A DNA stretch of 11,270 bases from a virus (Duplodnaviria; Heunggongvirae; Uroviricota; Caudoviricetes): IMG/VR virus record IMGVR_UViG_2695420897_000014; one strand, written 5' to 3'. Positions within the stretch are counted from its first letter, which is position 1. Each line of letters starts with the position of its first letter. A program made the position numbers and the translations under genes. The notes below the pieces were generated by a model. The model worked only from the letters and a program-made list of their open reading frames with translations, did not search any database and was not told where the DNA came from. Positions 1,994-11,270 of this stretch are shown in pieces.

Positions 1994-4900
1994 TCAGCTA
2001 ATCGTGATGCCTGCAGTGGCTTTCTTCATCACCACAACCAGCAAATCGCTGATACTTGCTGTGGGATACCAGTTATTTACCAGCCATGCTGACACCGAAA
2101 ACTCCAGTGTCATGTGACCGTGACCGGCAGGCATATCAATAACACCACTGTAAATCAGCGTATTATCCAGCGCGGTACGGTTATAAATTTCAGCACCGTT
2201 TTTCCGCACTATCAGACGGCATGAGGAGTAAATATCAGTATGCTCTTTCTCATGTTTAGCGCCGCTGAATGCCACCGCCGGAATAACAATCTGCCGGTCA
2301 AACGGCTGATCGTCATAAACCCTGACGGTAATGGTTCCTGATGGCCACCGCTCCGGTGCACGGGAGTCCCGGGGGAAAGCTTTGCCCACTGTTTTAACGA
2401 GATCGCCTTCAATCTGGTTCGCGGACAATTTTCCCAGAACCCGACAGTTCTCGTTAATCGTGACGTTGTTGAGCGTCCCGGAGTTCGCATTCACGTTACC
2501 GCTGATATCGGCATTTTTCGCCGTCAGCCGCCCGTCCGGTGTCAGGGAAAATGCCGGAGGATTACCGCCGCTGGTAATGGTGGGAGCCGTCAGATATTTC
2601 AGGAACACTTCATTCATAAATATCTGATCGCCCTGACCAACAAACATCGGCTTTGTGTTGCCATTCGCAGGATTAATCATCGCAATCCTGTCTGCCGCCA
2701 GCAGCACCTGACTCTGCATTCCTGCTGGCGTATTCTCAATACCGGCACCGATACCCGCAATATAAAGGCGTCCGTCCTGCATCTGCTGCAGTTTCACGGC
2801 CCACATGCTGTTCAGGTTATTATTTGTATCAACCTGAACTTTCTGTATCTGCTGGATTGCCGCACTCTGGTCTTCCAGTTTTTTATTGACGGTCTGCGTG
2901 ATTTCATTGCTGACATTCGTAATGGACGTCCTGATTTCAGCCAGGTCCGGCGCAAGCTGACCGTTATCAATCTGCGTCCACAGCTCCTGGGCCAGATGTG
3001 TTTTCCCGATTTCTCCTTTGAAAAAATCCAGGTAACCTTCCGCATCATCGCTCGCCCGACCGACAGCCTCCACGAATGCCGATTTGCCAACGGTGTTCAC
3101 ACTGCGAACGTAAAAATAATAATCATGGCCCGGTTTGATATTGATACTGGCGGCTATCCAGTACAGCGCCGTACCAAGATAACGCGCGCTGGTTTCAACC
3201 TGCCTGATATCAGCAATCCGTTTTTCCGAGAACCAGAACTCAAACTGTACCGTCGGATCATAAACCGCAAAATGCGGCGTGGCGGTTATCTGAAAATAGC
3301 CCGGCGTCAGCTCAATCCGCGACGGTGCTGCCGGTGCGGCAATCCGGAACGATACCGATGCCGGATCGCCCTGCTGTCCCCACGCATTTACCGCCCGGAC
3401 TGTCAGCCTGTAATTTCCCAGCGCCAGTTGCGTGAAGCGGTATGTAGTTTCCGTCGTCCTGGCCGTGCTGACCAGCCGCTCACTGCCATCGTCCGCTGCC
3501 ACGGTCAGGCGAAGCAGGAAGCTCACGCCCTTCACCACCTTCGGCGTGTCCCAGCGCGCCAGCACCTGATATTCCCCACTGTCTGCGGTGACTTCTGCGG
3601 TCAGGTGCTGCACCGCTGGCGGCGTGACACCATTCACCGTGCCGCTCTGGTCGCCGTCAAAGTGCGCCCCGTTATCCACGATGGCCTCTTTTTCCGGTAC
3701 ATGCTGCACGGCGGTGATGGCATACGTGCCGTCGTCGTTCTCACGGATACTCACGCAGCGGAACAGGCGCTGGCGCAGCATCGGCAGCTTCAGCCCCCAC
3801 ACGCTGTACTCGGCAACGCCGTCAGGAACACGGCTCACTTTTACCTTCACGCCATCAGTGACGGACTGAACCTCCACGCTGACCGGATTGCCACTTCCGT
3901 CAACCAGGCTTATCAGCGTGGTGCCGGAAGATGGCAGCGTGATTTCACGGTCGAGCGTCAGCGTCCGGGTCTGGCTGTTCACCGCCAGCACGCGCCCGCC
4001 GGTGCTGATACCGGCATAGTCATCATCACAGATTTCAATGACATCGCCCGGTACATGGCGAAGCCCTTCTGCACCCACGCTGAAGTCCACGGTCTGCGTT
4101 TCCAGCAGTTCCGTTTTAATCAGCCACAGCCCGGCGCGGTGCACCTGCCCCCGGCTGGTACAGCCAAAGGCATCCATCTTCGTGACGTGACGACCGTAAC
4201 GGGCAATGGCCTGCGTATCCTCCACAAGCTCTGTCGCCGTCTCCCAGCCGTTGTTCGGGTCAATCCAGTTCACCTCAACGGCATTATGGCGGTCCTTCAG
4301 GGCGCTGAAGCTGTAGCGGAACGGCGCGCCATCATCCGGCATCACCACATTACTGCGGTTATAGGTCCACACCTTATCTGATGGTCGGTCCTGCACGAAC
4401 GTCAGCGTCTGCCCGTTCCATACCGGCATACAGCGCATCGCCGAGCAGAAATCACTGAGCACATCCCACGCCTTGCGCTGTGTGGTCAGGTACGCATTAC
4501 AGGTAATGCGCGGCTCCGTGCCGCCAAAGCCATCCGGCACTGACTGGTCGCAGTACTGGCCGATGACATACAGCGCCCATTTGTCCACATCCGCCGCACC
4601 AAGACGTTTCCCCATGCCGTAGCGTGGATGGGTCAGCATATCCCACAGACACCAGGCCATGTTGTTGCTGTATGCCGGTTTAAACGTTCCGTCCCAGATA
4701 CCGCTGTATTGCCGCGTCTGCGGGTTATAATTCGACGGCACCTGCAGAATACGCCCGCGCAGATGATAATTACGGCTCACCTGCTGGCTGCCGAACTGCT
4801 CCGAGTCCACCTGCACGCCGACCAGTGCCGTGTTCGGGTAGCCCTGTTTCACATCGATGATTTCGGTGTATGACGACCAGAGCGTTTTGTTCTGCAGCTG

Positions 4901-5473
4901 GTCTGTGGTGCTGTCCGGCGTCATTCTGCGCATCCGGATATTAAACGGGCGCGGCGGCAGGTTATCCACCACCACCGAGGCCAGATACTGCGAGGTGGTT
5001 TTGCCCTTAATGGTGATGTCTTTTTCCGTCACCCAGCCACCGTTACGCTGTATCTGAACCAGCAGGCGGACTTCCGACGGATTCCGGTCCCCCTTTGAGG
5101 TGGTTTCCACCAGTGCCTGCACACCGAAGGTAAAGCGCAGACGGTCGATGTTTGCCGACGTGATGGTCCGGGTGATCGGCGTGTCATATTTCACTTCCGT
5201 ACCCAGCACCGTCTCGGAGCCGGAGGATTCAAATCCCTCCGGCGGTGTCTGCTCCTGCTCACCTGCCCGGAACACCACCGTGACACCGGATATATTGGTA
5301 TTCCCCTCACTGTCCAGCACCGGCGTACTGTTCAGCAGCACGCTTTTTAATCCGTCCACCGGACCTTCAACCGGCCCTTCGCTGATGGCATCGATCACAC
5401 TCAGCAGCTGCGTGGACTTCAGGTTGTCCCTCGCTTCGCGCGGGGTATGCCCCTTACTGCTTCCTTTACCCAT
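1994..5473 (-). CDS. J: Host specificity protein J (tail tip central fibre / receptor-binding protein), 1159 aa
   Basis: Single uninterrupted 3.48-kb ORF. The N-terminus [24 protein letters not shown] and long internal stretches are recognisable as lambda gpJ family. It lies directly downstream of I, as in lambda. GGAG/GAGGA motifs sit upstream of the ATG. Confidence 0.95.
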
Positions 5474-5490
5474 TCCTCACACTCCATAAA

Positions 5491-5515
5491 CAACAAAGCC
5501 GCCCAAAAGGCGGCT
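5491..5515 (-). terminator. Putative hairpin terminator downstream of the lipoprotein moron (minus strand)
   Basis: Stem AGCCGCC (5497-5503) / GGCGGCT (5509-5515) with loop CAAAA. The minus-strand downstream sequence is U-rich (TTGTTGTTTAT) but not a clean U-tract. Confidence 0.4.
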
Positions 5516-5539
5516 CATGAGTTACGACAGGATTAACTA

Positions 5540-5878
5540 TTATTTACATGCATTAACACTATCAGCAAAAATTTTTGGCGTTAATGCTGGTACACGTTCA
5601 TAAAGAGTAAAACTACTGCCATTTCCTGCTTTTTTGATATCAAGCACAACATCATATCCCCCCATAGCCTGTGGAACTAAAAGGCTTACCCCATTCTCAA
5701 TAGGAAGGGATGTTATAGGTGTTCCATTACCAGCCCATTGTCTGGATATGCAGCCTGACAATTCATCAATATTTTTTAATGAATTACCTTCCATTACAGG
5801 TTTTCCGGATTTTACGTAATCCAAAGATTTACATCCTGTTAAGGCAATAATCGTGCAGAATAAAATCGTTTTGTTCAT
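5540..5878 (-). CDS. Small predicted outer-membrane lipoprotein of unknown function (112 aa from the ATG at 5878), AT-rich moron inserted between I and J; candidate superinfection-exclusion or receptor-masking protein
   Basis: MNKTILFCTIIALTGC is a classic signal peptidase II signal with lipobox L-T-G-C. Lys at +2 implies Lol sorting to the outer membrane. The gene is visibly AT-rich against GC-rich flanking tail genes. Lambda has no gene between I and J. The ORF-track start at 5890 is a TTG; the ATG at 5878 is the more plausible start. Confidence 0.7.
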   Translation of the reverse strand: MNKTILFCTIIALTGCKSLDYVKSGKPVMEGNSLKNIDELSGCISRQWAGNGTPITSLPIENGVSLLVPQAMGGYDVVLDIKKAGNGSSFTLYERVPALTPKIFADSVNACK

Positions 5879-5951
5879 ATAGCTAACCAATAGAATAATT
5901 ATCAGTGTTCGATATAAATATTAAATCAGTTAGAACATGAGTAAAATAATA
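5879..5951 (-). promoter_or_regulatory. AT-rich intergenic region upstream of the lipoprotein gene, possible moron promoter
   Basis: On the minus strand the I stop-to-ATG spacer reads ...ACTGATTTAATATTTATATCGAACACTGATAATTATTCTATTGGTTAGCTAT-ATG. It contains a -10-like TGATAAT and weak -35-like candidates. No strong match, so this is speculative. Confidence 0.25.
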
Positions 5952-6593
5952 TTACCGCCCAATTACCACAACCTGACCACCATCCCCTTCATCTGCCGTG
6001 CTGATCTCCTGAGATGCCACACGTGACCCCACGCGCATTTCACCGTACAGAACAGGCAGGACATTGCCCTGGGCAACCATGTTATCCAGTGAGGAGAAAT
6101 AGGTGTTCTGTTTGCCGTTATCCGTTGTCTGTGTACGGGGAGTTCTGGCTTTCGGTGCCAGCATCTGCGCCACACCACCAAGCGTCATCGCCGCACCCAT
6201 TGAAAAGAGAATGTCACTGAAAGCGATACTGATCCCCGGCATCCAGATTGCCGTAGCAATCAACGCCGCACCCAGCACCGCCTGAAACACACCGCCACTT
6301 TTTGCTCCCGCAAGACGCGGCACGATGTGGATCACGGCACCATTTGCCAGCGGCTCATTAAGACGGGATGATAATTCGGTTTCTCCTGCATCCCGCCCGG
6401 CAATCCGTACCTGATACCAGCCATCGCTCAGTTTCTGACGAAACGCCGGGAGCTGTGTGGCCAGTGCCCGGATGGCTTCAGCCCCCGTTTTCACACGAAG
6501 GTCGATGCGGCGGCCAAATCGTTGCAAATCCCCGTAAAGGCAGATGCGTGCCATGCCCGGTGACGCCAGAGGGAGTGTGTGCGTCGCTGCCAT
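5952..6593 (-). CDS. I: Tail assembly protein I (lambda gpI homolog), 213 aa
   Basis: MAATHTLPLASPGMARICLYGDLQRFGRRIDLRVKTGAEAIRALATQLPAFRQKLSDGWYQVRIAGRD... and the C-terminal ...VGSRVASQEISTADEGDGGQVVVIGR match lambda gpI as I recall it. Its 5' end overlaps the 3' end of K by about 100 nt, as in lambda. Confidence 0.9.
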   Translation of the reverse strand: MAATHTLPLASPGMARICLYGDLQRFGRRIDLRVKTGAEAIRALATQLPAFRQKLSDGWYQVRIAGRDAGETELSSRLNEPLANGAVIHIVPRLAGAKSGGVFQAVLGAALIATAIWMPGISIAFSDILFSMGAAMTLGGVAQMLAPKARTPRTQTTDNGKQNTYFSSLDNMVAQGNVLPVLYGEMRVGSRVASQEISTADEGDGGQVVVIGR

Positions 6594-7234
6594 TTGTCGG
6601 TATACCTCTCTCGTTTGCTCAGTTGTTCAGGAATATGGTGCAGCAGCTCGCCATCACCACAGTAAATAGCGGCATGATTCGGCACCGATGAACCAAAGCA
6701 GCACAGCAGCACATCGCCCGGCTGCGCCGCTGACAACGGCACCTGATACAGCCCCGTTGCCTCCAGATTATCCAGATAGAGATTCTGACCGTGACGCCAC
6801 CAGTCATCCTCACGATGAAAGTCCGGCATCTCAATCCCCGCCAGATGGTAAGCATCCCGGAACAGTGTGTAACAGTCCGTCACCCCGTACTCAAAGCGCC
6901 GCCCGGTGAGATGCGGCACACAGCGGAACTTGTGAATCGCCCCCCGGCAGACCAGCCACCACGGCAAATCGCTCTGCACCTGTAGCCGCCGGTCAGCCTC
7001 ACTCAGCCAGGGCAGACCACCGGGGTGGCTGTGGACCAGCGCCACAATCTCACCCTGCATCTCTGCCTGCAGCCAGTCCTCCGGAGCCATCCGGAAATAA
7101 TCCTCCGGCTCACCGGAAATATTCACGCCGGGAAAATATCTTTCCCCCTCCGGCGTTCTCACCACGAAGCCGCACGACTCCGCTGGCGCACATCGCCGGG
7201 CGTGCGCCAGAATCGCTGATTCTGTCTCTGTCAT
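6491..7234 (-). CDS. K: Tail tip assembly protein K (lambda gpK homolog) with N-terminal JAB/MPN (JAMM-like) and C-terminal NlpC/P60-like domains; 247 aa from the first ATG, with an alternative internal start at 7090 giving the 199-aa lambda-annotated form
   Basis: JAMM-type motif HSHPGGLPWLSEAD with an upstream Glu (APAESCGFV). The C-terminal half carries conserved Cys/His (GVTDCYTLF...HAAIY...HHIP) consistent with NlpC/P60. Position between L and I is as in lambda. Confidence 0.9.
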   Translation of the reverse strand: MTETESAILAHARRCAPAESCGFVVRTPEGERYFPGVNISGEPEDYFRMAPEDWLQAEMQGEIVALVHSHPGGLPWLSEADRRLQVQSDLPWWLVCRGAIHKFRCVPHLTGRRFEYGVTDCYTLFRDAYHLAGIEMPDFHREDDWWRHGQNLYLDNLEATGLYQVPLSAAQPGDVLLCCFGSSVPNHAAIYCGDGELLHHIPEQLSKRERYTDKWQRRTHSLWRHRAWHASAFTGICNDLAAASTFV

Positions 7235-7239
7235 GGGAT

Positions 7240-7938
7240 TTACTGCGAAAGTTTGTTAATGGAAAGGAAGCCGCCAAAGTTGCCGACGTTATTGCGAAAC
7301 TTACAACCGCTCAGGCATTTGCTGCATTTATCCTTCGTGATATCGGACGTTGGCTGGTCATATTCATCCGCGACCGCCGGACCGTGATAACCGCACTCAT
7401 CGCCGCGATAGGTCCAGGTGCAGGTGTTGGCCAGCATGATACGTCCCGGAAAAACAGCGCCGTCCGTTTCCGTCGGCGTGGACAGTACAAAGGAGGCACT
7501 GACCGCGCTCAGTTCGCTGCACTGCTCGATGCGCCAGCGGCTGATCACCTCCTGCTCCGGATCGGCGTCGCTGTTTCCGTTGACGAAATTCACCGCATCC
7601 AGAAAACGGGCGTAAACCTTACGCCTGACCACCGTTCCGCCGACCAGACTCTGCATATCTTCCGCCATGCCGGTGACCATACCGTACAGGTTAGAAACCG
7701 TCAGCGTGGGGCGCGTACTGGTGCCTTTGCCATTCAGTTCAAAACCACTCCCCTGAATGGGATACGGCTGATACTGTCGCCCCTGCCAGGTGACCGGCTC
7801 ACCTTTTTCGTTCTGCTCATTACAGAAAAAATAACGTTCTCCACCGACCTCTGTCAGGTCGATTTCCCAGAGCACCACGCTGGCAGACTGCTCCGCACGG
7901 GTGCATTCATTCAGTGTTTCCTGTCGGATATCCTGCAT
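7240..7938 (-). CDS. L: Minor tail protein L (lambda gpL homolog), 232 aa, with C-terminal Cys cluster
   Basis: MQDIRQETLNECTRAEQSASVVLWEIDLTEVGGERYFFCNEQNEKGEPVTWQGRQYQPYPIQGSGFELNGKG... and the C-terminal cysteines (CTWTYRGDECGYHG...CSKCLSGC) match gpL. The ATG overlaps the M stop as ATGA. Confidence 0.95.
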   Translation of the reverse strand: MQDIRQETLNECTRAEQSASVVLWEIDLTEVGGERYFFCNEQNEKGEPVTWQGRQYQPYPIQGSGFELNGKGTSTRPTLTVSNLYGMVTGMAEDMQSLVGGTVVRRKVYARFLDAVNFVNGNSDADPEQEVISRWRIEQCSELSAVSASFVLSTPTETDGAVFPGRIMLANTCTWTYRGDECGYHGPAVADEYDQPTSDITKDKCSKCLSGCKFRNNVGNFGGFLSINKLSQ

Positions 7939-8267
7939 CAGTTCACCACCTGTTCAAACTCTGCGCTGAACTCAACACGCAGCATACTGACCCGCGACGA
8001 CCATTTTGCGCAGGTCACCTTTATCTGCCGGTAGCCATAAGGCGGCGTCCACAGAAAGGCCTTCCAGCCCCCGTGCTCAGCCAGAAACGACTCCAGCGCC
8101 GCGGCCTCCCAACGGGGAACAGAAAGCGTCACGCTGTACGTTTTCAGGTCAGTGTTCAGCCCGGCAGGCGCTCGCTGGGAATAGCCATCACCAAAGCGCA
8201 CCTTTCTTACGGAAGGGGCAGAAGCCACATCCATACCGGGTTTCACTTTCCAGCGGAAGGTTTTCAT
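7938..8267 (-). CDS. M: Minor tail protein M (lambda gpM homolog), 109 aa, copy 1
   Basis: MKTFRWKVKPGMDVASAPSVRKVRFGDGYSQRAPAGLN...SRVSMLRVEFSAEFEQVVN matches gpM. The start overlaps the stop of the upstream H fragment, and its own stop overlaps the L start (ATGA). Confidence 0.95.
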   Translation of the reverse strand: MKTFRWKVKPGMDVASAPSVRKVRFGDGYSQRAPAGLNTDLKTYSVTLSVPRWEAAALESFLAEHGGWKAFLWTPPYGYRQIKVTCAKWSSRVSMLRVEFSAEFEQVVN

Positions 8268-8863
8268 CGTCCACCTCCGGAGAACAGACCACCATCGCGC
8301 ATCTGCCCGGTCACAACATCCATTGCCGCCTTACGGGCTACGTCATAAACAGCCTTCAGTGCCTGTGGCCCTATCTGACCGTTCGTGCCGTCGTTGTTAA
8401 TCACCACATGGTTATTCTGCTCAAACGTCCCGGACGCCTGCGACCGGCTGTCCGCCATGCTGCCCGGTGTACCGACATAACCGCCGGTGGCATAGCCGCG
8501 CATCAGCCGGTAGAGATTCCCCACGCCAATCCGTCTGGTTGCCTCCTTCGTGAAGACGAATTCACCGCGGTGAACAATTCCCGCTGGCTCATATTTGCCG
8601 CCGGTTCCCGTAAATCCTCCGGTTGCAAAATGGAATTTCGCCGCAGCTGCCTGAATGGCTGTACCGCCTGATGCGGATGCGCCGCCACCAACAGCCCCGC
8701 CAATGGCGCTACCGATACTCCCGACAATCCCCACCATTGCCTGCTTAAGCAGAATTTCTGTCATCATGGACAGCACGGAACGGGTGAAGCTGCGCCAGTT
8801 CTGCTCACTGCCGGTCAGCATCGCTGCCATATTCTGTGCAATACCGTCAAAGGTCTGCGTGGC
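8264..8863 (-). CDS. H: 3'-terminal fragment of tape-measure gene H (C-terminal 199 aa), copy 1, truncated at the N-run; partial, not an intact gene in this assembly
   Basis: Translation ATQTFDGIAQNMAAMLTGSEQNWRSF...GGFTGTGGKYEPAGIVHRGEFVFTKEA...MRDGGLFSGGGR equals the C-terminus of the full H copy at 9633..10232 with a few substitutions. Its upstream end abuts 10 N. Confidence 0.75.
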   Translation of the reverse strand, partial: ATQTFDGIAQNMAAMLTGSEQNWRSFTRSVLSMMTEILLKQAMVGIVGSIGSAIGGAVGGGASASGGTAIQAAAAKFHFATGGFTGTGGKYEPAGIVHRGEFVFTKEATRRIGVGNLYRLMRGYATGGYVGTPGSMADSRSQASGTFEQNNHVVINNDGTNGQIGPQALKAVYDVARKAAMDVVTGQMRDGGLFSGGGR

Positions 8864-8873
8864 NNNNNNNNNN
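8864..8873. other. Assembly gap (10 N) joining two partially redundant sequence blocks
   Basis: Ten consecutive n characters at 8864-8873. Confidence 0.99.
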
Positions 8874-9307
8874 GCGCTCAGTTCGCTGCACTGCTCGATG
8901 CGCCAGCGGCTGATCACCTCCTGCTCCGGATCGGCGTAACTGTTTCCGTTGACGAAGTTCACCGCATCCAGAAAACGGGCGTAAACCTTACGCCGGACCA
9001 CCGTTCCGCCGACCAGACTCTGCATATCTTCCGCCATCCCGGTGACCATACCGTACAGGTTAGAAACCGTCAGCGTGGGGCGCGTACTGGTGCCTTTGCC
9101 ATTCAGTTCAAAACCGCTCCCCTGAATGGGATACGGCTGATACTGTCGCCCCTGCCAGGTGACCGGCTCACCTTTTTCGTTCTGCTCATTACAGAAAAAA
9201 TAACGTTCTCCACCGACCTCTGTCAGGTCGATTTCCCAGAGCACCACGCTGGCCGACTGCTCCGCACGGGTGCATTCATTCAGTGTTTCCTGCCGGATAT
9301 CCTGCAT
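8874..9307 (-). CDS. L: 5' fragment of minor tail gene L (N-terminal about 144 aa), copy 2, truncated at the N-run; partial
   Basis: Translation MQDIRQETLNEC...VNGNSYADPEQEVISRWRIEQCSELS is identical to L copy 1 residues 1-143 except D to Y at one position. It is fused in frame by chance across the N-run to the H fragment in the ORF track (8264..9307). Confidence 0.75.
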
Positions 9308-9636
9308 CAGTTCACCACCTGTTCAAACTCTGCGCTGAACTCAACACGTAACATACTGACCCGCGATGTCCATTTTGCGCAGGTCACCCTGATCTGCCGC
9401 CAGCCATAAGGCGGCGTCCACAGAAAGGCTTTCCAGCCCCCGTGCTCAGCCAGAAACGACTCCAGCGCCCTGGCCTCCTCGCGGGAGACAGAAAGCGTCA
9501 CGCTGTACGTTTTCAGGTCAGCATTCAGCCCGGCAGGCGCACGCTGGGAATAGCCATCACCAAAGCGCACCTCCCTGACGGAAGGAGCCGATGTCACATC
9601 CATCCCGGGTTTCACTTTCCAGCGGAAGGTTTTCAT
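9307..9636 (-). CDS. M: Minor tail protein M (lambda gpM homolog), 109 aa, copy 2 (divergent allele)
   Basis: Same length and ends as copy 1, with 9 amino-acid differences (for example PRWEAAA versus SREEARA; Y to W; K to R). ATGA overlaps with H upstream and the L fragment downstream. Confidence 0.9.
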   Translation of the reverse strand: MKTFRWKVKPGMDVTSAPSVREVRFGDGYSQRAPAGLNADLKTYSVTLSVSREEARALESFLAEHGGWKAFLWTPPYGWRQIRVTCAKWTSRVSMLRVEFSAEFEQVVN

Positions 9637-11270
9637 CGTCCACCTCCGGAGAACAAGCCACCATCACGCATCTGTGCCTGAATTTCATCACGGGCACCCT
9701 TGCGGGCCATGTCATACACAGCCTTCAGCGCCTGTGGTCCAATCTGCCCGTTCGTGCCGTCGTTGTTAATCACCACATGGTTATTCTGCTCAAACTTCCC
9801 GGACGCCTGCGACCGGCTGTCCGCCAGACTGCCCGGTGTACCGACATAACCGCCGGTGGCATAGCCGCGCATAAGCCGGTAAAGATTCCCCACGCCAATC
9901 CGGCTGGTTGCCTCCTTCGTGAAGACAAACTCACCACGGTGAACAATCCCCGCTGGCTCATATTTGCCGCCGGTTCCCGTAAATCCTCCGGTCGCAAAAT
10001 GGAATTTCGCCGCAGCTGCCTGAATGGCTGTACCGCCTGATGCGGATGCGCCGCCACCAACAGCCCCGCCAATGGCGCTACCGATACTCCCGACAATCCC
10101 CACCATTGCCTGCTTAAGCAGAATTTCTGTCATCATGGACAGCACGGAACGGGTGAAGCTGCGCCAGTTCTGCTCACTGCCGGTCAGCATCGCTGCCATA
10201 TTCTGTGCAATACCGTCAAAGGTCTGCGTGGCCACGCTTTTTACCTGCGAAAAACTGTCCGTCGCACTTTCCGCCCACTCACCCCAGCCGGACTTCATCC
10301 CGGCCATCCAGCTTCCACGAAGCTGCTCCTCCGCAGACCAGGTGTTCTTCAGTGCAGATGTGGCCTTCGCCAGCGCATCCGGATTATCACCGTACACCTC
10401 ACGAAGGCGCTGCTCTTCCGACTCCCGCTGCGCCTGACGGTCGGTGAGTCCGCGGGCTTTTGCGCTGATTGCCGCCTGCTTCGCACTCTGCTGCTGTTCA
10501 AACCGCGCCGCCTGCTGTGCCAGCTCATTCAGCCGTTTCTGGTGTTCAACCTTGTCGCCCAGCTCAGCCAGCTGGCGTTTGTACTCCAGCGTCTCTTTCT
10601 CATGAGCCAGCAGGGATTTTTCCTGCTCAGATAACTGCCGTTTCGTGGCGGCCTCTTTCAGGACCACATACTGATTTTCCGCTTTCCATAAATCCCGGCG
10701 CTGCTGGCTGATTTTTTCATTCGCACCGCTGTGCTTCTCCAGCGTCCTGAGCTCAGTTTCAAGCGACAGCATGGCTGCATGCGCCCGGTCTTCCTGGCGC
10801 TCACCGGCAGACACCTTCACACCTGACGGCTTTTTCTGCGTCGATTCATAATCCTTTTTTGCCGACGCCATCAGCGTGTTGTAATCCGCCTGCAGGATTT
10901 TTCCGTCTTTCAGGGCCTTATTCAGCTCTTCCTGCCGGGCGGTATATTTCTCCAGTGGCGTCAGCAGGCGCTCATACGCCTTCTGCGCCTCTCCGGTATA
11001 CTTCAGCTGTGACGACTCACGCTCAGCCCTGTCCCTTGCCGCCAGTTCACCGGCTTTTTCCATATCCGACTGCAGCGTGGCCGCTGCCAGACCCAGACGG
11101 GCATTTTCCCGGTCATCCCATGCGCCCTGAAGGTTGGCCCGGAAAGAGGAGGTTTTACCGCGGCGCTGGCTCCGGCTCTGGTACCACTGCCATTTTTTAT
11201 CCGCCTCATCAAATGCCTTCTGCGCACTGGCGAGCATATCCGCTGAGGATTCCGGACGACCGATATCCAG
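9633..11270 (-). CDS. H: Tail length tape-measure protein H (lambda gpH homolog), 5' end beyond the window (partial, at least 545 aa shown)
   Basis: The reading frame is open to the window edge; the upstream in-frame codons 11238-11270 translate LDIGRPESSAD before MLASAQ. Coiled-coil-like charged region, then the conserved C-terminal block QVKSVATQTFDGIAQNM...GGFTGTGGKYEPAGIVHRGEFVF...MRDGGLFSGGGR, typical of lambda gpH. Confidence 0.9.
   Translation of the reverse strand: MDIGRPESSADMLASAQKAFDEADKKWQWYQSRSQRRGKTSSFRANLQGAWDDRENARLGLAAATLQSDMEKAGELAARDRAERESSQLKYTGEAQKAYERLLTPLEKYTARQEELNKALKDGKILQADYNTLMASAKKDYESTQKKPSGVKVSAGERQEDRAHAAMLSLETELRTLEKHSGANEKISQQRRDLWKAENQYVVLKEAATKRQLSEQEKSLLAHEKETLEYKRQLAELGDKVEHQKRLNELAQQAARFEQQQSAKQAAISAKARGLTDRQAQRESEEQRLREVYGDNPDALAKATSALKNTWSAEEQLRGSWMAGMKSGWGEWAESATDSFSQVKSVATQTFDGIAQNMAAMLTGSEQNWRSFTRSVLSMMTEILLKQAMVGIVGSIGSAIGGAVGGGASASGGTAIQAAAAKFHFATGGFTGTGGKYEPAGIVHRGEFVFTKEATSRIGVGNLYRLMRGYATGGYVGTPGSLADSRSQASGKFEQNNHVVINNDGTNGQIGPQALKAVYDMARKGARDEIQAQMRDGGLFSGGGR

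Follow-up and report, generated by a model that had tools for sequence, protein, structure and literature searches.

A mobile lipoprotein gene between tail genes I and J of a lambda-like prophage is uncoupled from the receptor-binding end of J

The stretch of DNA analyzed here, hereafter the window, comprises 11,270 nucleotides of a virus of the Caudoviricetes (IMG/VR record IMGVR_UViG_2695420897_000014) and carries a small prolipoprotein gene between the tail assembly gene I and the host-specificity gene J. With high confidence, we describe this gene as a mobile moron that encodes an outer-membrane lipoprotein of a new family. A first-pass annotation of the window had proposed that the lipoprotein masks the receptor of the adjacent J protein. 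This proposal is not supported by the comparison of loci, as the gene is genetically uncoupled from the receptor-binding end of J. An accessory moron whose lipoprotein acts in the cell envelope, probably in phage exclusion that does not depend on J, is the explanation that we favor as a whole, tentatively and at somewhat less than even confidence.

The prolipoprotein coding sequence occupies positions 5540..5878 on the minus strand, with the TAA stop codon included, and its product is identical to RefSeq WP_001332187.1, annotated as "hypothetical protein". Starting from the ATG at 5878, the open reading frame (ORF) specifies 112 residues beginning with MNKTILFCTIIALTGCKSL; the automatic ORF call extends to a TTG at 5890 and yields 116 residues, and every homologue begins at a methionine equivalent to the ATG start. 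Residues 1-16 (MNKTILFCTIIALTGC; 5831..5878, minus strand) form a signal peptide with a lipobox, in which Lys3 and a hydrophobic core precede L-T-G-C16 (MNKTILFCTIIA-LTGC). The segment MNKTILFCTIIALTG lies directly before the cysteine, making up a canonical lipobox with Cys16 as the predicted lipidation site and Lys17 at position +2. When the lipobox is defined as [LVI][ASTVI][GAS]C at the end of the signal peptide, its cysteine is present in all 36 divergent homologues examined (20-57% identity), position -1 is glycine, alanine or serine in 36 of 36, and position -3 is mostly leucine, valine or isoleucine. Within the broader set of family representatives, a lipobox is found in 113 of 116, and a cysteine lies within the last four residues in 108 of 116. 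The conserved lipobox and the ORF itself bear out the earlier description of a 112-residue protein with a textbook lipoprotein signal and lysine at +2.

Residue +2 of a bacterial lipoprotein decides its outer-membrane sorting by the Lol system. Aspartate, the Lol-avoidance signal, occurs at this position in none of the 36 homologues, and by the +2 rule the lipoprotein is predicted to be sorted to the outer membrane. The mature domain spans 96 residues (17-112; 5543..5830, minus strand). A periplasmic disulfide between C43 and C111 is probable, because both cysteines are invariant in 36 sequences (112-residue numbering). The first-pass annotation had named C47 and C111 as the cysteines of the mature protein; C111 is right, whereas C47 corresponds to C43, the numbering of the 116-residue TTG form having been mixed in. 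The AlphaFold2 model, built from 12 sequences, has a mean predicted local distance difference test score (pLDDT) of 83.6, with values of ~ 90 across the mature part. The predicted topology of the mature protein is beta-alpha-beta4-alpha, which places C43 within the first long helix and C111 within the final one.

Sequence comparisons place the protein in a family that lacks a functional name. Residues 1-112 match positions 1-118 of the 118 positions of the PHROG 914 profile (E 7.3e-33), and beyond this and the "hypothetical" RefSeq entry the profile searches led to no named protein, in keeping with the earlier statement that the sequence is not recognizable as one. The window protein has no family in Pfam (E up to 1), NCBIfam or PADLOC-DB 2.0 (E up to 1); the sole library match is to a VirB7 signal peptide, at 12.7 bits against a cut-off of 60. 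Pfam searches with the 36 homologues returned only lipid-attachment-site noise, single-sequence and profile searches of the PDB only signal-peptide or chance matches, and fold searches only generic alpha/beta neighbors. A profile search of 1.84 billion representative sequences collected 125 relatives (50% clustering), nearly all of 105-125 residues, from Yersinia, Hafnia, Shimwellia, Klebsiella, Kluyvera, Enterobacter and metagenomes.

At 95% nucleotide identity or more, 337 of 5426 complete E. coli genomes (~ 6%) carry the gene. A scan of GTDB species representatives found one locus, and three distant family members have no close relatives in IMG/VR. Among 50,697 phage records, tblastn with the window protein gave 0 matches, and with a Klebsiella homologue as query only the coliphages Fraca and LMessi were recovered, at 26-28% identity; the family membership of the Fraca protein is given a probability of 99.2% by hhalign. 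Pairs of moderately diverged homologues have a dN/dS (the ratio of nonsynonymous to synonymous substitution rates) of 0.06-0.10, with nonsynonymous divergence (pN) of 0.09-0.13 against synonymous divergence (pS) of 0.64-0.68. Out of 62 E. coli copies, 40 are identical and 1 is frameshifted. The lipoprotein gene is real and under purifying selection.

A side observation concerns the carriers themselves. Carriers account for 6% of complete E. coli genomes and include 70 IMG/VR prophage contigs, and phages with the same J end are well represented among the phage records, none of which has the gene. The carrier prophage is disrupted by an insertion sequence in strain FDAARGOS_1059, and in IHE3034 its tail fiber gene is frameshifted. 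Carrier prophages may be rarely induced, or defective.

The position of the gene is best defined by alignment with lambda. The window matches lambda up to the stop codon of I and resumes at the spacer hairpin that leads into J; a pairwise alignment with lambda 15380-15540 delimits ~ 430 base pairs of extra DNA at 5517..5951, the 3' boundary being approximate. Lambda has only a 60-nucleotide spacer at this point, and the earlier statement that it has no gene between I and J is correct. The insert differs sharply in base composition from its surroundings. The fraction of guanine and cytosine (GC) in the lipoprotein gene is 0.363, and 0.239 at third codon positions (GC3), against 0.54-0.60 and 0.53-0.68, respectively, in the flanking tail genes, so the computed values support the claim that the gene is lower in GC than every flanking tail gene. 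For the insert at 5520-5950 the fraction is 0.339 (34% vs 57%), and a sliding GC profile falls to 0.35 exactly at the lipoprotein gene. The same deviation is seen for the phage-borne homologues, whose GC lies below that of their own flanks in every phage slot.

The gene is bordered by two noncoding segments on the minus strand. Upstream, an AT-rich leader of 73 nucleotides (5879..5951) reaches from the I stop codon (5952-5954) to the ATG, with no clear Shine-Dalgarno sequence. A candidate promoter read by eye at 5917..5945 (TTTACT-17 nt-AATATT, minus strand) matches the consensus at 8 of 12 positions, below the threshold of 9 of 12 set for our scan for sigma-70-like promoters, and is inferred only; no counterpart of it is conserved in the other slots. 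Downstream, a terminator-like hairpin (5496..5516, minus strand) with a 9-base-pair stem and a 3-nucleotide loop, GAGCCGCC-TTT-GGGCGGCTT, is followed by a T-rich run and lies 23 nucleotides after the stop codon and 22 nucleotides before the J start. The gene had been credited with its own AT-rich upstream spacer and a downstream hairpin. Both are present; however, the spacer is an AT-rich leader with no promoter passing the scan, and the hairpin is also found in lambda, whose I-J spacer carries a homologous one without any ORF. A GC-rich hairpin with a U-run trails the gene in all three tail slots described below, 15-25 nucleotides before the next tail gene. The hairpin may be the moron's own terminator, as every slot of the gene has one, but lambda has its hairpin without the gene.

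Further features of these borders were observed. The lambda I-J hairpin CCGCCTGCGGGCGG-TTTTGTCATTTATGGAG (locus L021, 2446-2505, compared with window 5474-5520) closely resembles the hairpins that follow the gene in K-I slots; hairpin and the motif TTTATGGrG were compared in the 3' flanks of loci L002, L011, L014, L016, L099, L102 and L006. This lambda spacer might be what a lost cassette left behind, or it may belong to a generic kind of intergenic module in tail operons. An imperfect direct repeat of 19 nucleotides (74% identity, core CCGCCCAA) brackets the insert at 5488-5506 and 5944-5962, one copy lying across the I stop codon and the other coinciding with the 3' arm of the hairpin; it could be insertion microhomology, or chance. 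In the Rfam search, a match to GcvB RNA at window 5488-5713 (minus strand; gene 3' end plus hairpin) scored 19.6 bits against a gathering score of 42 (E 0.059) and was taken as chance, and no other known RNA matched in the insert. In the leader of an Enterobacter prophage (L006, 7960-8000), a CCTCC...GGAGG hairpin could sequester the Shine-Dalgarno sequence, which suggests translational control of the lipoprotein gene in the Enterobacter slot.

Across Enterobacterales, the gene does not keep to one position in the tail operons of its carriers, temperate siphophages with lambda-type tail tips. In 70 IMG/VR loci, it is flanked by I and J at 58, by K and I at 4, and by T and the tape measure gene at 6. 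The order K, lipoprotein gene, I, J is found in Klebsiella, Kluyvera, one metagenome contig and one clade with Hafnia members, and the isolated coliphages Fraca and LMessi likewise carry a family member before I, in the K-I slot. In Yersinia prophages, K is followed by variable cargo, the lipoprotein gene and then I, and in Enterobacter prophages with HK97-like heads and tape measures the gene stands between T and the tape measure. One distant member is located at a prophage end beside integrases, and another in an island without phage genes. The phage-borne members seen are all in genomes with a lambda-type J or tail-tip gene. Extra DNA between otherwise adjacent genes and deviant base composition, two of the features by which morons are recognized, are both found here. 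The claim of a horizontally acquired moron is well supported by the precise insertion, the GC deviation, the conserved lipobox and the changes of slot. The HK97 record annotates the morons gp22 and gp23 in the I-J slot and terminators just before I and J. Morons are therefore known to settle at these intergenic tail positions, and the mere presence of a gene between I and J does not set a lambdoid phage apart.

A homologue of 38% identity in Shimwellia blattae is chromosomal, located between a yidB-like gene and ecotin (L097, 7001-7339). The order in this neighborhood is copCD-yebY, the yidB-like gene, the homologue and ecotin, with no phage genes nearby. The lipoprotein family may be of cellular origin.

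Other small genes were noticed at the same junctions. The Yersinia K-I junction (L102-L104, ~ 2400-7000) is a cargo hotspot upstream of the lipoprotein gene, with Arc-like repressors, Bro-N and KilA-N/ANT antirepressors, an FtsK-gamma domain protein and a SocA_Panacea protein. The junction has the appearance of an immI-like island or a defense island within the tail operon. A second, unrelated lipoprotein ORF (MRKFLSILACSLIIVGCSPSEKD..., 115 residues) lies between K and I directly upstream of the family member in LMessi (L017, 6647-6994) and Fraca (L016, 6725-6994), the Fraca copy being annotated from a later start and without a signal peptide. In the 320-nucleotide K-I gap of HK97 (L105, 5061-5159), upstream of an annotated terminator, an unannotated ORF of 32 residues has a strongly hydrophobic stretch (MYTVGFGWIFVGIFIGLILWFF...) and may represent a further small membrane moron.

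A lipoprotein that masks the receptor of J should track the receptor-binding C-terminus of J. Comparison of loci displays no such linkage. The last 200 residues of J sort into four types among the 41 E. coli loci where J is complete; the types are present at 28, 7, 3 and 2 loci and are mutually 50-69% identical or unrelated. Lipoproteins paired with different types are only 0-2 residues apart; several types share identical alleles, and no allele co-variation is seen. The commonest J end, type A, is found in at least 2283 E. coli genomes against 337 with the lipoprotein gene, and in at least 52 phage records, all lacking the lipoprotein gene; these type A counts are lower bounds, at 95% identity or more. 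In other genera, homologues of ~ 50% identity accompany J proteins of 1065 to > 3300 residues, and most genera have the gene away from J.

The layout of the locus points in the same direction. The lipoprotein gene lies at the 5' end of J, ~ 3 kilobases from the receptor-binding 3' end, and ~ 2.4 kilobases of J, 94-100% identical to lambda J, separate it from the variable J end. Gene and J end are easily uncoupled by recombination because of this near-identical stretch between them. Phage Fraca carries cor as well as a family member, so that the FhuA-masking role is already filled in this phage. At least four J ends per protein, a type A end that is common without the gene, slots away from J, the lack of homology to Cor and Lpp proteins and the cor gene of Fraca together leave the proposed masking of the J receptor unsupported. 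Phage exclusion of some kind is still compatible with these observations; only J-matched masking loses its evidence.

In the explanation that we favor, a cassette consisting of the AT-rich leader, one gene and the terminator-like hairpin would have been inserted right after the I stop codon. The lipoprotein would be exported by Sec, lipidated at Cys16 via Lgt, LspA and Lnt, and, since residue +2 is lysine, passed on by Lol to the outer membrane, where it would face the periplasm. The mature domain of 96 residues, predicted to be a compact alpha/beta fold of a previously undescribed family, would be stabilized by a C43-C111 disulfide made by DsbA. The lipoprotein would then act in the cell envelope to the benefit of the lysogen or the infected cell. 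Its target might be a conserved envelope component, or else the lambda-type tail tip or tape measure of an incoming phage crossing the periplasm, and its action would resemble that of the inner-membrane HK97 gp15, encoded in the same slot between T and the tape measure gene. Exclusion independent of J is favored because the characterized envelope proteins from tail-operon morons (HK97 gp15, Cor, mEp Lpp) are mostly exclusion factors. The example of gp15 indicates, moreover, that a factor of this kind can be directed at the incoming tail instead of the receptor and can stem from a chromosomal gene. By this analogy, superinfection exclusion directed at a J-independent target is the most likely role, at somewhat less than even confidence.

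A more specific form of this idea is receptor-independent exclusion at the periplasmic face of the outer membrane, in which the lipoprotein intercepts the lambda-type tail tip or the tape-measure C-terminus of any siphophage. Such interception would explain why the gene travels with lambda-type tails but with no particular J end; we regard it as rather unlikely. By analogy, the interceptor would correspond in function, for Gram-negative hosts, to the Gram-positive Ltp and would complement the inner-membrane HK97 gp15 from the outer membrane, a parallel that we hold to be doubtful.

Several observations weigh against exclusion as the role of the lipoprotein. E. coli carriers hold 1-5 lambdoid I-J junctions, with a median of 2, as do genomes in general, so no exclusion of lambda-type prophages is visible at the population level. 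The protein has no similarity to any known exclusion or defense protein in comparisons with Cor, Llp, Lpp, PADLOC-DB and the PDB, and literature searches for the accession, for PHROG 914 and for the gene position found no paper. The association with lambda-type tails may only reflect recombination through the conserved flanking tail genes, and the chromosomal homologue shows that the fold can serve a purely cellular role. In four contexts, no sense-strand sigma-70-like promoter upstream of the gene passes the consensus scan, a simple scan that cannot exclude a promoter, and in Klebsiella only 32 nucleotides separate K from the lipoprotein gene. On both grounds, the gene may not be expressed from a repressed prophage but only late.

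Among the other explanations, a host-fitness factor of lysogenic conversion survives best. The lipoprotein would in this case serve the lysogen in serum or complement resistance, envelope stress or colonization, in the manner of Bor/Iss, Lom or Flpp3, a virulence lipoprotein of Francisella. The chromosomal Shimwellia homologue and the distant homologue in a non-phage island are consistent with such a role, as are the presence of the gene in extraintestinal and enteric pathogen lineages (IHE3034, CE10, O104:H4, avian pathogenic E. coli) and of lom in the same prophage; a terminator directly after the gene would fit the classic design for expression in the prophage state. However, neither a Bor/Iss or other Pfam match nor a recognizable promoter was found, and the gene also occurs in prophages of non-pathogens and environmental enterobacteria and in the coliphages Fraca and LMessi. 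We consider a fitness role credible but on the unlikely side.

The arrangement of the gene on the same strand as the tail genes, embedded among them with 32-90 nucleotides to the upstream gene, raises a different option. The lipoprotein could be a late lytic helper, made from a transcript that it shares with the tail genes and that starts at the Q-antiterminated late promoter, and acting in the dying cell, where it might block secondary adsorption or injection, keep progeny off debris, or modulate the envelope before lysis. At one Yersinia locus, the end of the upstream cargo gene and the start of the lipoprotein gene share one base, no promoter of its own was detected, and T5 Llp shows that an exclusion lipoprotein can act during lytic growth (bioRxiv 10.64898/2026.03.26.714494). 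A hairpin after the gene in every slot would be pointless for an antiterminated transcript, yet lambda has a hairpin without a gene. With one homologue outside the late operon, beside integrases, and another in the chromosome, a late lytic role appears distinctly unlikely.

The masking of the J receptor in the manner of Cor or Llp, which would shield the lysogen or keep progeny off debris, is improbable on the present evidence. It would agree with a temperate siphophage that encodes, in its tail region, a lipoprotein predicted to reach the outer membrane, and with the example of Cor, Llp and mEp Lpp010 and Lpp021, for which masking is described (PMC9586334, PMC11893012). The concentration of 28 of the 41 E. 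coli loci in one J C-terminal type would also speak for it, but type A is simply the commonest E. coli J end. The near-identity of the protein beside at least four J ends, the type A phage records without the gene, the wide range of J lengths beside homologues, the positions away from J and, in one prophage, near integrases, the conserved stretch before the receptor-binding end, the cor gene of Fraca and a mature domain without homology to Cor, Llp or the Lpp proteins all stand against it. That the gene is a non-functional hitch-hiking ORF or an annotation artefact, as the bare "hypothetical" label, RefSeq locus tags outside the numbering series of the neighbors, its absence from the 50,697 phage records under the window query and the existence of frameshifted copies might suggest, is effectively refuted by the low dN/dS, by a lipobox and two cysteines that are invariant across sequences of 20-50% identity, by the confident fold prediction and by the 40 identical E. 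coli copies against a single disrupted one.

Three more candidates were considered, the first two of which were rejected. A structural tail component is ruled out by the signal peptide, by the lack of the gene in lambda and in the majority of phages that have the same J, and by its variable position. A spanin is ruled out since the gene lies outside any lysis cassette. A periplasmic inhibitor of the NlpC/P60 domain of K was considered since the gene most often follows K, and no support for it was found.

The lipoprotein is a conserved, unstudied envelope protein encoded in six percent of complete E. coli genomes, and its carriers include the neonatal-meningitis strains IHE3034 and CE10, avian pathogenic strains and O104:H4 strains. 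If receptor-independent exclusion is its function, it would represent a new family of surface-level defense, with a bearing on host-range failures in phage therapy and on competition among prophages. If it serves host fitness, its gene would count as a new case of lysogenic conversion in lineages that include pathogens. In either case, the locus offers a clean example of one cassette hopping among three defined slots of the tail operon. It also calls for caution, as adjacency to J is no evidence of receptor matching; what counts is linkage to the receptor-binding 3' end of J.

The window contains the distal tail module of a lambda-like prophage, with every gene encoded on the minus strand. The tape measure gene H (9633-11237) runs off the window end, and the tail genes M and L, between H and K, are followed by K (6491-7234) and by the tail assembly gene I (5952-6593), which forms the upstream flank of the insert and aligns to the end of lambda I. 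The downstream flank is J (1994-5473), encoding the tail tip and host-specificity protein of 1159 residues; its residues 1-800 are 94-100% identical to lambda J, and its last ~ 200 residues are of type A, identical to the J of VT1-Sakai. Then follow lom (1327-1926) and the start of stf.

Part of this module shows signs of imperfect assembly. A run of 10 N at 8864-8873, a scaffold gap, gives rise to a chimeric ORF (8264-9307), the N-terminal half of which copies L, with 1 residue differing from the L at 7240-7938 before the gap, while the C-terminal half repeats the last part of the tape measure. M, too, occurs twice as a result (7938-8267 vs 9307-9636, ~ 90% amino acid identity). The segment 7240-9636 seems to consist of contigs of two related tail modules joined together, or of a mis-scaffolded repeat.

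Placing the lipoprotein among known phage and bacterial systems makes its likenesses and differences clearer. HK97 gp15 is the founding moron, an envelope protein encoded in the slot between T and the tape measure gene that excludes phages without blocking a receptor, in a manner dependent on the tail of the incoming phage, and it is homologous to chromosomal YebO proteins (PMC3594210). Both are small envelope-targeted proteins encoded by GC-deviant cassettes inside a lambdoid tail operon, and both families have chromosomal homologues outside prophages; the Enterobacter homologue occupies the exact gp15 slot from T to the tape measure. By analogy, the receptor-sparing exclusion by gp15 is J-independent action of the kind that we allow for the lipoprotein. 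In contrast, gp15 is an inner-membrane protein and not a lipoprotein, and its function has been shown.

The gene for Bor in lambda lies beside the lysis genes, outside the tail operon. Bor and Iss, which are expressed in lysogens, share with the present protein their nature as outer-membrane lipoproteins of ~ 100 residues encoded by a prophage moron. The Lambda_Bor family of Pfam is not matched by the window protein at E up to 1, and no relevant family was found with its 36 homologues; a Bor-like serum-resistance identity, which the first-pass annotation had named as a check on its proposal, thus receives no support. Cor of phi80, N15, HK022 and mEp167 and Llp of T5 are also phage-encoded outer-membrane lipoproteins, encoded near the tail or receptor-binding genes of siphophages, and they mask FhuA; lipoproteins of this type are described as receptor-masking (PMC9586334). 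Unlike the present gene, which is upstream of J or between K and I or T and the tape measure, the cor gene of Fraca lies downstream of J and encodes only 77 residues. No homology to Cor was detected either by BLASTP against Fraca Cor (E 0.19 over 24 signal-peptide residues) or by hhalign (30 columns, the signal peptide plus a few residues), and for T5 Llp only profile positions 1-19 align, with no likeness in sequence or structure (PDB 8a60_B and related entries).

The exclusion lipoproteins of the mEpimmI phages compared here (types A and C), Lpp021 and Lpp010, exclude phages experimentally, and their types track the receptor, OmpA or LamB (PMC11893012). They too belong to the tail-gene region of temperate coliphages with K-I-J genes. 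Lpp010 and Lpp021 are however shorter (82 and 72 residues, respectively), and their genes lie on the opposite strand downstream of the J 3' end, that of Lpp010 immediately and that of Lpp021 one gene further; hhalign aligns only 17-20 signal-peptide columns with them. In predicted structure, the beta-alpha-beta4-alpha helix-on-sheet architecture appears to be shared with Flpp3/DUF3568 of Francisella, the N-domain of BamC, DUF302 and KA1, of which Flpp3 and BamC are outer-membrane lipoproteins as well. The resemblance to DUF3568/Flpp3 is one of fold only, since sequence searches did not place the lipoprotein in that family.

Ltp of the Streptococcus phage TP-J34 blocks DNA injection by engaging the incoming tape-measure protein, not the receptor. 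It is presented as the prototype of prophage-encoded cell-surface lipoproteins in superinfection exclusion (PMC3952083). Ltp differs from the present lipoprotein in its Gram-positive host, and we offer it as a mechanistic model of how receptor-independent exclusion might operate. Set beside these systems, the lipoprotein forms a new family within a known class, the moron-encoded envelope proteins of temperate phages.

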